From assembly GCA_964057225.1 (NCBI GenBank), contig OZ059895.1:12834001-12898000 (forward strand): a DNA stretch of 64,000 nt. Reading direction: 5' to 3'. Below, in pieces: positions 40,509 through 50,187 of the stretch (within the stretch, counting starts at the first letter, position 1; every line of letters begins with the position of its first letter). The notes under the pieces were generated by a model. The model was not told the origin of the DNA and did not search any database. It worked only from the letters and a program-made list of their open reading frames with translations. Position numbers and translations under genes: made by a program. This DNA comes from Auanema rhodensis. Lineage: Eukaryota; Animalia; Nematoda.

Positions 40509-40847
40509 CGTTCCATATTGGTTCCTAGGGTTCCGGCTAGGTAACCATATGGACTTTAATAGTGTGAATGCCATTGTAAAAGTAACAGAGAGTAGAGAAA
40601 AAGAAGTTTATTCAGAATATGGAAATACAATTATAAAAGCAAAATACAATAATCAAATAAATGAAACTACATGTTATGAGAAAGCCAACCTAGTTGCTTT
40701 CTCAGGGGTTTATATAGCAAAATATTAATTACAAATATAATTGAATTTATACAAAAAGTAGTTCAGGTCTAGTTTCTTATTGAATTCTATTAACCAAAAG
40801 TCGGTTGACGTTGTCAACCGCCTTCTTTATAAGACACGTATGGAACA
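40509..40847 (-). repeat. 3' LTR, Gypsy copy 2
   Basis: Reverse complement of 8416-8754. Confidence 0.95.
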
Positions 40848-41071
40848 TGCCTTATATTGAAAAAGTAGCTGACCTCAGCTATAAGAAATTAGACCTTTTA
40901 AGGAAAAGAAACAAAAGAGAAAAATATATATATAAATGAATTAGAATTAGAATACTAGAATAGGAATAATAGTGTAATAGGAATAATATAAAAAAAAATG
41001 AAAACAATATAAAAAGAAAAAGAAAAGAAAAGAAAAGAGAAGAAAAACTATGAATTCACCTCGTGCAGCTG

Positions 41072-41707
41072 TTATCCTTCTTCCTCCTCGATTTGTCCCA
41101 GCTGGAAGTCGGTCGCGGGTTGCCGGTCGGCGACCGTCCATATGTGGAACAGGCTGACGTCTGTCAGCAGTTCCGTTGCCTGGCCTGCTATCATCATTTT
41201 CTTTCTTTTCTGGTCCGGAGTGGTGGCGCGCGTCGCCATTAGTATCCTTAAGGCCTGGCTGATCAGGTCTCCCGCCTTCCTAATCGACTGGTTAGTCGAT
41301 TCCATCATACTTTCTTCTGTCCAGCTCTTGTGGATCTCTTCCGCGGCCCATCTTGGGATGAGATCCGCGCTGGCTACATTTTCGGAGGCTGGATAGCCTA
41401 GATCTTCGCGTAGTTTGTTGATGGTGGCCTTGGTGCGGGCAGTGGCCTCGGACCAGTTTTGCGCCATTTTGGCCATCTCTTCTTCATCATTGTTACATGA
41501 ACATTGTAACCTTTCCAGAGTCTCTATTAATAGAGTAACTCTGGCTAAATTCTCCGATAATGATTGGAGAATTCTTATCTTTTTAGTCCGGTTGTTTGTT
41601 GTCTCCAGTTGTTGTAGTTCTATCTGGAGCGAATGTATCTTGATCCATTTTTCCTTGATCATCGCGATAGGTGTCTCGCAGGCTGGTGGAGGGAAGACGA
41701 GTGCCAT
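41072..41707 (-). CDS. Accessory ORF, 211 aa (copy 2)
   Basis: 210 of 211 aa identical to 15221-15856. Confidence 0.85.
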   Translation of the reverse strand: MALVFPPPACETPIAMIKEKWIKIHSLQIELQQLETTNNRTKKIRILQSLSENLARVTLLIETLERLQCSCNNDEEEMAKMAQNWSEATARTKATINKLREDLGYPASENVASADLIPRWAAEEIHKSWTEESMMESTNQSIRKAGDLISQALRILMATRATTPDQKRKKMMIAGQATELLTDVSLFHIWTVADRQPATDFQLGQIEEEEG

Positions 41708-41929
41708 TCTTGTGGTGCTGGGAGTTTTTCTGCTTGAGGTGAATTTTGAGCTTATATAGGGTGAAAAAAAATAGGTAAGTATATTTTTTGTGATACATAG
41801 ATATTAAGATTGATGATTGGGGAAAACATTGTTTTTGTTGTTTGGGTAGCAGATAGAATGAATTATTGTAAATTAATAAAAAAAAATTAATTAATAAAGT
41901 TATTTTCCCAAAAAAGTTTCTATTTTTGA

Positions 41930-46476: not shown

Positions 46477-49003
46477 TTATAAAGATGCTAGGCTAGAGCC
46501 GTAGGAAATAGCCAGTGCCATTGGAAATGTTGACTCCGTGAGGTTTGAAAATATGTTGGAATTGTTAAACTTAATGTGATCAATTTTTACAGATGTGAGT
46601 TCATCCGAAAATGAGAAGTTAGTCACATTCAATGTTGAATTATCTTTCATCCATTGATTGTTTTCTCTGTAGGGATCTGATGTAGCCATATCGCATGCTA
46701 TGATGTGGGCATATGGTGTTAAATCTCTTGATCCTGGTGTGATGAAGAGTTTTCCGTGATGTTCCGTGTCTACCGGTGTCTCCAGGTAACATTTATCGTC
46801 TCGTTTGTGATCCGAGTATACACGTGTTACTTGTACAGGGGTGCATGGCATGACGTAAATAAGATGTTCTCCAACAAACTTTGCTGAAATATCCTGTCGA
46901 CGAAGCATAGTGCGAATTCCTATAGTCGGATTAATCTGCAGGATAGCCCACCAGGTAAGTAGCTGCTTATTTTGCATTCTGCATACGCTTTTCTTTGTTA
47001 TTTGGAAAGATTGTAAGATTTCCTCCTCTAGTTTTGACGTAGAGTATTGGAGGTGGGACCTTGTATCTTGTTGACGTAGTTGATCGTCGTATTTTTGAAT
47101 GATATCAGCTCGTGTTCGTAGGAAATTGAGGTGGGCTTGTGATCCAGTGTGAGATTTGATTTCCTCAATCGGTTGGGTCGTTGTTGCTCGCTTTGTAGTA
47201 GTCCGAGTTGTTGGAAGTGTCCTAGTAGATTCCCTGCGGGATGTGGTGGTGAGAGGACGTGGTGGTGGAGTTACTGGAGTTGTTGTACTCTGGTAATAAT
47301 AATATCTCCTTGGTGTAGTTGTAGGTTGAGGTGGAGACGTCCGATGAGTAGTAGTTGTCGGGGCAGTTGTTGTGGTAGTCGATGTAGTGGTTGTGGTGGT
47401 TGTAGTAGTGGTGGTTGTGGGGCTAGCACCAGGTGACTCAATGAGCTGAAGATATGTTTGTTGAAATAATTTGCTGTCTTCATCCGTGATAGATCTGATT
47501 GTAGGTTGATTTTTGGGCAACCCATAATTTTGTGCGTGTCCGTTGAAGATGAGGGTATAGTTGGGAAAGACGATTGCTGACGAATTTGCCTGTTTTGTGA
47601 GATCTGCCCATTTCTTATTTTCTGTCTCTCTTTGTTCTTTTGATATCCGAGTTAGACGATTGTTTTGCTCTAGATAATCAAGAAACTCCTGTATTTGATC
47701 CATCTGGGTGTAGAACTGTGTGTCAGTGCGTGATCTAGGCAGTTTTGTCATCCTGGGTGGGTACAGTTGGTACAGATAGTCCTCCATTGATGGAATAGTC
47801 TCTCCTGTTGCCAGAGTGATAGGTGTATGAGCTATTTCAATTGCTATTTGTCTTGCTCGGTCGAGATAATCGCCTTCGTAGTTGAGTAGACGTGTGGCAA
47901 AGTCGCTGATAGTGATTTGCTTGCTGAGTTTTGCCGTGATCTCGGATGGTAGTAGGTGTTCGATGGCAATTTTCGTAGAAAGTCGAATCTCAGCTTCTGC
48001 AAGTGTGTGCAGGATAACCATGTTGATGTCAGTGTAGTTGTGCCATAAGAGTCGGTTCTTCAGTTTTGATGAATCTAGTTGTAGGAATTTGATGAAACCT
48101 ATGTGTACGCTAGATGTCTTGAGATATTCCATAAGGTTATAAGCGTTGTCCAGTCTTTTCCTATTTCGATATGTCTGGTACATAGGTAGTATAACTGTAG
48201 AACTGTCTGTGAGGCGAAGTGATTTGTAGATAGTGATATTGAAGAATCTCGTAGGGTATTCTTGGGGTGCCATCCTCTTTTGACGTCGGTGTGTTTTTAA
48301 GTCCTTGATGGAAATGTACGTACCACTATCAGTTGAGTAGATGCTTGTATTCATACATCTTGTAGCTGTAGGGTCTGGCGTGTTGTTTTTGAGAATGAAT
48401 GCTCCTTGTATTTCCGAGATTAATACAGTATCATTGTTGATTAGTGCTTCGAATTTCCCTAATGTCGTGTAGTCGCAATTTCGATGATCATTGGGTGGGA
48501 TCCATGTGATAACTGCGTTGGTGGTGTTGCATACTCCTTGTTGCTTAGTGCATCCTTCAGTGTTGATGAATAAGTCGGAGATTATAGTGTCATCGTGTAG
48601 GCTAGTCATCATTCCTCTTTCTAAGGTGAATCTTGACTTGGTTGTGCAAGAGGATGCCCAAAACGATTTTGGTTGTGTATTAGATGGCATAGGGGCTTTG
48701 AATAGTCCTGGTGCTTCGCGATTGAGGTCGTTATCCATGTGTCGTCTTTCTTGAATGGCTGTTTGGCATTCTTGTGGAGTGGCTGGTTCTATTCGGAGTA
48801 ATGTAACGTTATTTTCCCTGATGAAGAATAAGTCGTGGGCGCACGTTTTATACATTTCCTTGGCGCATTTCCATGCTTCCCATTCCTTGTAATTCATATT
48901 TTTGCGAATAGTTCCACTGTTTTTATCTCGACTCCGTCCTTGTGTGCATAGTCTGAGCAGGTGGTTGGGCGAGGTGGTTCGAGGAAAATACCTCCTCGTT
49001 TGC
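46477..49003 (-). pseudogene. env: Class III Env ectodomain (signal peptide deleted, 1-bp frameshift at ~48903, in-frame TAA at 46477-46479)
   Basis: Near-identical to the copy 1 Env; same frame as the downstream pol ORF. Confidence 0.88.
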
Positions 49004-49827
49004 CAGGCTTCTCATACTCACTTTTCCAGACTTCTCTTACCTAAGCAAACCCCCAAAAGACGTTCCCTTTTAACGTTACTTCTGTTCCCCTGGGTCTTGC
49101 TAGGTGGGACCACTCAACTTCAAAATATTCTTTAATTCTCATATGGGACCAAAAGGGTTAATTTCAAATGACTGCGCGTCTTATATCAAAAAGTGTACGC
49201 CTCCGCGCGATGTCCCGAGAATGTCTGGTATTGTTTCTTACGGGGCTTTCTCATAAAAATGCGTTAGATATCAAGAATAGTGGTTTTGTTTATGAATCAA
49301 TGTTTTCAGAATGATTTATGAATAGATATTTTCAAAATTTAGCTTGTGATAAGATGTTTTCAAGATGACTTATGGGTAAGTGTTGCAATATGAATAAATG
49401 TCTTTAAGATATTTCATGAATTGATAGTTTTTAATATTATTCGTGGTTAAATATTTTGATATGCTTGTTCAAAAAAGAGTTTTTATGCATTATATGCTTT
49501 AAACATACAGGAAAGTAGAGGAATAAAGTAGGAATATAGATTGTAATAGATAATATGTATAAGACATTTTTTTTTTTCAAATAGATATATCAGAAATGAT
49601 GTTAGAAGAATGATATTTAGAGATAAATTCGAATTACTAGATTAAAATGGAGTTTTTGTTTTAGATACAAAATTGACTTGAAAGTTTGAAATATAAAATT
49701 TAATTAGAATTTTTGGATATGAAATCAAGATAAATTTTTAGAGTAAAAAGGATTTCAAAGAAAGAGAAAGTAATTTAAAGGTGAGAAAAGTAGCGGCAAT
49801 GGTCCATAGAGATTCGTCCCTCATAGA

Positions 49828-49848
49828 CGAATCTCGGTGGAACCTCCA
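49828..49848 (-). other. Primer-binding site, tRNA-Gln
   Basis: Same 21-mer as copy 1. Confidence 0.9.
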
Positions 49849-50187
49849 CGTTCCATATTGGTTCCTAGGGTTCCGGCTAGGTAACCATATGGACTTTAAT
49901 AGTGTGAATGCCATTGTAAAAGTAACAGAGAGTAGAGAAAAAGAAGTTTATTCAGAATATGGAAATACAATTATAAAAGCAAAATACAATAATCAAATAA
50001 ATGAAACTACATGTTATGAGAAAGCCAACCTAGTTGCTTTCTCAGGGGTTTATATAGCAAAATATTAATTACAAATATAATTGAATTTATACAAAAAGTA
50101 GTTCAGGTCTAGTTTCTTATTGAATTCTATTAACCAAAAGTCGGTTGACGTTGTCAACCGCCTTCTTTATAAGACACGTATGGAACA
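49849..50187 (-). repeat. 5' LTR, Gypsy copy 2
   Basis: Reverse complement of 8416-8754. Confidence 0.95.

Follow-up and report, generated by a model that had tools for sequence, protein, structure and literature searches.

Two long terminal repeat (LTR) retroelements, E1 and E3, in a 64-kb stretch of the nematode Auanema rhodensis genome (contig OZ059895.1, positions 12,834,001 to 12,898,000; here called the window) are very probably recent, defective copies of a Ty3/gypsy element of the published GAG-ENV-POL kind. The family is likely to make a single Gag-Env-Pol polyprotein, which is predicted to cross the membrane of the endoplasmic reticulum twice. This reading is based on the gene order, which natural relatives share, on the in-frame joins between coding regions, on the class III fusogen fold modelled for Env, and on lesions that are private to the two copies. 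The layout is already known, and the element obtained by merging E1 and E3 (the window element) adds one more member to the published nematode group. The window consists of tandemly repeated units of 529 bp and 399 bp, broken up by three LTR elements, the third of which (E2) is unrelated to the other two. Coordinates are collected in Table 1.

The coding order was read from both copies. In E1 a single frame (9863-13993) contains a Retrotrans_gag domain (10628-10897, E 9e-6), a basic-hydrophobic segment and a Cys-rich glycoprotein region that matches the gB ectodomain family of Pfam; an earlier note on this DNA had proposed this run of Gag, hydrophobic segment and glycoprotein in one frame, and the segment falls exactly at 11543-11605. 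In E3 the open reading frames (ORFs) 49011-46477 and 46476-42865 share one frame with a single TAA between them, and beyond the TAA the same frame encodes a transmembrane helix, a protease, a reverse transcriptase (RT), an RNase H and an integrase, as that note had also claimed. The Env region of E3 matched the Pfam family Monjiviricetes_fusion (E 9e-17), and the Pfam domain order is gag, Monjiviricetes_fusion, gB ectodomain, protease, RT, RNase H and integrase. Addition of coordinates gave a merged element of 11,708 bp with about 2,940 codons, in line with the earlier estimate of ~11.7 kb and ~2,950 amino acids. The order, the in-frame joins and the natural relatives described below agree with env lying between gag and pol in a single-frame design. 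The hydropathy of the signal and transmembrane segments was scored by sliding window. The E3 frame of Env contains 14 sequons, and slippery heptamers were scattered, none being at a domain border.

Table 1. Coordinates of the E1 and E3 copies, their coding features and the adjacent 5S rRNA genes (window positions).
Feature	Copy	Position	Strand	Remarks
Second defective copy, 8,002 bp	E1	8416..16417	+	TSD TAAC
gag	E1	9887..11542	+	capsid domain 10628-10897, then Arg/Gly/Asn/Gln-rich region
Internal signal-peptide-like segment, in-frame Gag-Env join	E1	11543..11605	+	cleavage predicted; sliding-window hydropathy
Env ectodomain up to E1 frameshift	E1	11606..13855	+	pol absent past 14054/14057
3' accessory ORF	E1	15224..15856	+	
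Complete 5S rRNA gene		16487..16605	+	E1 target site begins 69 bp upstream
Defective gag-env-pol Ty3/gypsy copy, 9,679 bp	E3	40509..50187	-	4-bp TSD ACAT
3' LTR	E3	40509..40847	-	same as 5' LTR at 339/339
3' accessory ORF, 211 codons	E3	41072..41704	-	predicted all-helical
Integrase C-terminal (GPY) region and long acidic tail	E3	41930..42865	-	
Integrase zinc finger and core	E3	43039..43539	-	then frameshift near 42889
RNase H	E3	43879..44271	-	
Reverse transcriptase core	E3	44458..44937	-	YLDD at 44613-44602
Aspartyl protease	E3	45682..45969	-	DTG at 45921-45913
Env transmembrane segment	E3	46210..46305	-	peak hydropathy 2.5
In-frame stop between Env ectodomain core and transmembrane segment	E3	46477..46479	-	
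Env ectodomain, unbroken stretch, class III (gB-type) fusogen	E3	46480..48900	-	
Mucin-like Thr/Ser/Pro-rich Env block	E3	47173..47427	-	85 aa, 71% S/T/P, 42 Thr
Predicted furin-type site RQKR in Env	E3	48274..48285	-	
Deletion junction	E3	49004..49005	-	2,029-bp stretch with all gag and signal segment missing
Primer binding site, tRNA-Gln type	E3	49837..49848	-	12/12 match to site of two published nematode GAG-ENV-POL elements
5' LTR, 339 bp	E3	49849..50187	-	TG...CG ends
Complete 5S rRNA gene		50263..50381	+	E3 target site begins 75 bp upstream

The hallmarks of Ty3/gypsy elements (Metaviridae) were found in E1 and E3, namely LTRs, a target-site duplication (TSD), a primer binding site and the order protease, RT, RNase H, integrase. 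The two copies are 99.0-99.1% identical across all overlapping parts, and each of the three elements has a separate TSD (TAAC for E1, ACAT for E3 and GGATT for E2). Since the LTRs of E3 are identical and those of E1 (336/337 identical) show a single mismatch and a small gap, both insertions are, on LTR comparison, young. The LTR termini of E1 and E3 are TG...CG and not the usual TG...CA (8754, 16417, 40509 and 49849), and the TSDs confirm these ends.

Both copies are broken. The earlier note had reported a single TAA; this stop is present, and further breaks exist. E3 carries frameshifts near 48900 and near 42889 together with the gag deletion, and in E1 the frame shifts near 13856, while ~3.7 kb, comprising the transmembrane segment and nearly all of pol, are missing at the junction 14054/14057. 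The stretch was present in eleven public DNA sequencing runs from 3 studies, four of which were compared with E3 and one with E1. The E3 stop was missing from the dominant contig in all four runs (3 studies), each bridging the site by at least 59 bases. At the first E3 frameshift the dominant contig differed in 4/4 runs; the second was bridged by the dominant contig in two runs and gave loose ends in the other two; at the gag deletion the dominant contig continued into other sequence in all four. The E1 frameshift and large deletion were not shared by the contigs of one DNA run. Because the dominant contigs of the public runs are without these lesions, the lesions appear private to E1 and E3, and the stop and the frameshifts, judged from these assemblies, are not part of the design of the element. 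The published inclusion rule for such elements, in the accessible text, is that of intact, uninterrupted ORFs (PMC13524379); both window copies are broken, with lesions private to them. On the transcript side, no RNA run was listed among those containing the stretch; three presumed-RNA runs from one study gave 8 matching contigs, of which the element-like ones had a depth of 2.7-4.6 and covered mostly the 3' end. A deep 34-bp match to the Thr repeat in these runs was of low complexity, and none of these matches was used as evidence of expression.

Natural relatives were searched with the part from the transmembrane segment to RNase H against proteins of 2,107-5,000 amino acids. Twelve long proteins matched the pol part at E<=1e-100, and eight of them had the same Env families, all eight being nematode-labelled (Caenorhabditis or Ancylostoma). 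In the nine relatives scanned, which were these eight and one metagenome protein (P0001), Env preceded protease and RT without exception, and the match from gag to env was unbroken in seven. The relatives have a signal-like segment before Env and a transmembrane segment after it, with spacing near that of the window element: the distance from the last ectodomain Cys to the transmembrane segment is 136 residues in the window element and 117-135 in relatives, and that from the transmembrane segment to the protease 121 and 102-132, respectively (P0011 was mis-picked in this comparison and P0010 was without a protease motif). This similarity indicates that nothing large is missing around the stop. 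A V/I/L-N-x-V/I motif was found before the signal segment in 6/8 relatives and after the transmembrane segment in 6/8, and at both places in the window (by eye, with no background count). A third hydrophobic signal-like segment lies between the transmembrane segment and the protease in P0004-P0007, P0009, P0011 and P0012; in the window element and P0001 the motif found before the protease in relatives is represented by a short polar version only.

The RT of the window element is 62-64% identical to those of Caenorhabditis env-bearing polyproteins. The RT tree comprised 14 rows. Its 10 env-first rows fell on one side (support 99/96), and E3 grouped with five Caenorhabditis rows (support 95/93); P0002 and P0003, which have no alignable RT, were left out, and the sequences of the published elements (PMC13524379) are absent from this tree. 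In a metagenome scan 2 distant loci were found; both hold pol only, and neither matched env, gag or the small ORF. No related locus was found in the viral contigs scanned.

The fold of Env was modelled from the unbroken 807-residue stretch of E3 with an alignment of 10 sequences. The PDB rows listed by Foldseek for this model were all herpes gB or thogotovirus glycoprotein (best E 3e-5), and the structure matches in a viral library were to rhabdo-like, nyamivirus, chuvirus-like, herpes and entomopox glycoproteins. A Foldseek-free structure search of 48,161 chains placed class III fusogens in all of its top 8 positions, mainly via the fusion domain, the best chain being gB of herpes simplex virus 1 (HSV-1; Z 9.1, root mean square deviation 4.0, 132 aligned). 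Model quality was better in the beta domain at the N-terminus and in the C-terminal domain. The structure matches support the identification of Env as a class III (gB-type) fusogen flanked by a signal-like segment and a transmembrane segment. The description of the polyprotein as flavivirus-like in the earlier note can be kept as an analogy of processing and not for the fusogen, which is class III and not class II. The middle of Env measures 458 residues between two anchor cysteines in the window element vs 131-417 in relatives; this long stretch has the furin-type site on one side and the core helix on the other and ends in the 85-residue mucin-like block, to which a Thr block of P0001 is similar. 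The Env insert (residues 834-1112) matched no Pfam family, and its Atlas scores were under 0.9.

Several observations weigh against the reading of a single Gag-Env-Pol polyprotein. The whole order from gag to integrase is carried by neither copy in the window, and no contig covering the whole element was among those listed for the runs. The Env model is weak overall (predicted local distance difference test, pLDDT, 50; predicted template modelling score 0.26), and its TM-scores in Foldseek were below 0.2. The database polyproteins are gene models, which could splice around stops, and P0010 and P0011 are visibly fused to unrelated genes. The RT tree had 4 outgroup rows only and no GyDB references, and no PTAP, PPxY or YPxL budding motif was found in the three frames scanned.

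The same data can be set against other explanations. The stop after the Env core could be a regulatory readthrough site, giving low-level Pol and anchored Env while most Env is secreted. Readthrough between gag and pol occurs in gammaretroviruses, and the two E3 ORFs do share a frame across one TAA, but the relatives run through the stop region with the same spacing, and all four runs bridge the site without the stop. Since the stop and the frameshifts are not in the dominant contigs, readthrough of the E3 stop is unlikely, and a regulatory scheme built on it very unlikely indeed. The repetitive nature of the array and the broken state of both copies might also suggest that the layout arose by chance nesting or as an assembly chimera, with an env fragment placed in an ordinary gag-pol element; against this stand the independent TSDs, the in-frame joins, the cover in 4/4 runs and the same order in 9/9 relatives, and such an origin is hardly credible. 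We also regard as quite improbable that Env is a passive, decaying passenger of a family that moves only within the cell. The env regions of E1 and E3 are separated by 7 synonymous changes and 11 replacements (omega about 0.58, p 0.19), which is not different from neutral, but at 1% divergence the power of this test is low. In 10 Env sequences with 23-29% identity, fourteen Cys/Pro/Gly/Leu/Ala columns do not vary, and translation of pol must pass through env.

A further explanation keeps the observed gene order but lets splicing or gag-only helper copies set Gag, Env and Pol at separate levels, in which case particles would not be 1:1:1. In DNA run X2 the leader and gag had about twice the depth of env (445-531 vs 208-316), and one contig with a depth of 226, about half the gag depth, joins 11354 to 15586. 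By frame arithmetic this joint would cut Gag off about 60 codons ahead of the signal segment, a stop following after 12 codons. The three donor-like motifs of E1 are all in the leader. On the other hand, the gag-only joint was seen in one contig of one run with 26 bases on its short side, its ends are not GT-AG, the depth just past it is low (48) from a gap in cover, and no strong nematode acceptor was found ahead of the protease. An abundant gag-only derivative in run X2 is possible, and tuning of the three products on this pattern seems somewhat unlikely.

Under the preferred reading of a single Gag-Env-Pol polyprotein, a predicted topology with an internal signal, a luminal Env and Pol as a cytosolic tail agrees with the conserved hydrophobic segments of the relatives. 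From the biology of the translocon, signal peptidase and furin, Gag would be the first part to be synthesised, in the cytosol, after which the internal signal segment would open the translocon and signal peptidase would free the N-terminus of Env, which would be glycosylated in the lumen, trimerise and be cut by furin. The transmembrane helix would halt transfer, and Pol would be made as a cytosolic tail. At V/I-N-x-V/I sites the protease of the element could then free Gag of its signal stub and separate Pol from the Env tail; the V/I/L-N-x-V/I motifs would be such protease sites, judged by Ty3/gypsy preferences. Until the protease acts, this arrangement would, with no matrix domain, keep capsid and enzymes tethered to the budding membrane. 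The cost of such a single polyprotein would be an output of Gag, Env and Pol at 1:1:1. E1 and E3 cannot run this scheme alone; they were likely copied in trans by intact relatives, or else their decay set in shortly after they inserted.

Sacco et al. 2022 (J Gen Virol) reportedly described Nematoda endogenous retroviruses (NERVs) of chromadorean nematodes with a continuous gag-env-pro-pol ORF and an RNA-virus-like glycoprotein, some of them said to have an extra small ORF. In the accessible text of Chary and Hayashi (eLife, PMC13524379), Ty3/gypsy elements of Nematoda, Bryozoa and Platyhelminthes have the GAG-ENV-POL order with ENV of the HSV/gB type only, and the nematode case, a flipped env/pol order in nematode Metaviridae, is credited to Sacco et al. 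2022. The layout, which the earlier note had supposed to be new, is thus already published. These nematode 'ancient errantiviruses' have in common with the window element, as far as that text goes, the gag-env-pol order, a gB-type Env and a Ty3/gypsy Pol (PMC13524379), and the supplement, in the part available, gives 36 nematode elements, 8 of them with a tRNA-Gln primer site. The primer site of the window element is the same at 12/12 positions as those of Caenorhabditis latens errantivirus_4 and C. tropicalis_1, and its merged size is similar to that of C. latens_1 (11.5 kb). Its eight N-terminal Env cysteines are spaced 7-24-39-31-6-17-39, compared by eye with 7-24-40-30-6-16-39 in C. latens_4 (Nematoda_C1 row). 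Unlike these elements, as described in the accessible parts of PMC13524379, the window element has a longer Env middle with a mucin-like block, a 3' orphan ORF and an insertion beside 5S genes. The main text of that paper, in its accessible part, makes no mention of 'polyprotein', 'mucin' or 'stoichiometr' and does not discuss processing, and no account of the threading and cleavage of a Gag-Env-Pol chain was found in the literature searched.

Single polyproteins with Env are also known in Belpaoviridae. Atlas virus has, in the available part of its description, a stop-free polyprotein of 2,828 residues that includes Env, with env last (PMC9094657). Atlas virus and elements of the Cer7/Cer13 type resemble the window element, on that same account, in being nematode retroelements with Env in one polyprotein, and differ in being BEL/Pao elements with env last and a class II, phlebovirus-like Gn/Gc (PMC9094657); E2 is of that kind. 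Assignment of E1 and E3 to Belpaoviridae (Atlas/Cer13 type), which have Pao peptidase A17/DUF1759 domains, env 3' of integrase and a class II fusogen, was rejected on their Ty3-type domains and the class III Env before pol, and only E2 fits. Assignment to insect errantiviruses (gypsy, ZAM), which carry env as a third ORF after pol, was rejected since env precedes pol and the 3' ORF has no transmembrane or fusogen match.

The accessory ORF after pol was retained in both deleted copies. Between E1 and E3 it differs by 8 synonymous changes and 1 replacement (omega about 0.04, p 1.5e-4), and the other two frames over it show no such synonymous bias; the post-integrase tail has 2 synonymous and 2 replacement changes, which is not significant. 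Because of the excess of synonymous changes and its absence from the other frames, the 3' ORF is likely a real gene, apparently under purifying selection. No homologue was found among 242 candidates, there was no usable Atlas match, and Pfam matches were sub-threshold only. The only match among representatives, P0016 (E 3e-25), was rejected as a homologue: it is a 3,000-residue tandem repeat whose score is made up of 18 stretches of ~31 bits each, and is at most a faint lead. The modelled product is a low-confidence helical bundle (pLDDT 48) with generic structure matches only, the best being to designed bundles (Z 9.9); no SUMO-protease-like row was listed in this search. Our best guess for the product is a small scaffold or an antagonist of host defence, with a spliced or separate message as its source. 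E1 has three splice-donor-like motifs at 9362-9582 within its 1.1-kb leader and an acceptor-like motif at 9873 just before the gag ATG; they could possibly mark a leader intron or a donor for the message of the 3' ORF.

E2 (25154-34122, minus strand) is a BEL/Pao element with a phlebovirus G2-type env 3' of the integrase. Its coding is interrupted by frame changes, a small Cys/His-rich ORF lies downstream (25525-26046), its TSD is 5 bp long and its LTRs are ~99% identical apart from gaps totalling 18 bases. Run X2 also contains an LTR end joined within the post-integrase tail (14459 / 42466), which suggests a copy with a nested insertion or a rearrangement.

The 'satellite' repeat that flanks the elements is a 5S ribosomal DNA array with 42 5S rRNA genes in the window (Rfam). 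The Rfam scan of the window gave no family besides 5S, and no SL1 gene was detected in the repeat. Among the 80 spacer copies, 38 lead only into a truncated 5S start, which also follows each full 5S gene. The three LTR insertions belong to two unrelated families, and each sits a short distance upstream of a complete 5S gene (E1 at -69, E3 at -75 and E2 at -100; the insertion boundaries used were 8415/8416, 25153/25154 and 40508/40509). Under random placement, tried post hoc, 0.26% of trials put three sites within 31 bp of phase and 1.1% put two sites within 6 bp. The position may reflect aimed insertion. In yeast, Ty1 and Ty3 target RNA polymerase III genes through integrase tethering, according to the accessible text (PMC7459421). 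The likeness is that yeast Ty3 and Ty1 insert just upstream or at the start of Pol III genes, as E1 and E3 do; the difference is that integrase tethering was demonstrated there, whereas the window has only 2 insertions of the family, at -69 and -75 of 5S genes. Against targeting, chance would place 3/3 insertions before full 5S genes in 14% of cases given 42/80 spacers, the test is post hoc with n=2 for the gag-env-pol family, and E1 and E3 are oppositely oriented. That the unrelated E2 lies in this zone as well may reflect open chromatin or an AT-rich site and not a tether. A 2024 review, in its available part, calls insertions in the 5S spacer fairly frequent, with only fish reported among animals (PMC10946416), and no nematode case was found in the literature searched.

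These features can be joined in one reading, in which an enveloped animal element aims at the stretch upstream of working 5S genes as Ty1 and Ty3 do, and gag-only helpers and a selected 211-residue accessory protein solve the 1:1:1 problem; we consider this combination fairly unlikely. If the 5S targeting is true, Pol III-directed LTR integration would be extended from yeasts to an enveloped animal element. Being young and multi-copy, the family of the window element offers clear Gag-Env-Pol junctions that can be sought in host RNA and protein.

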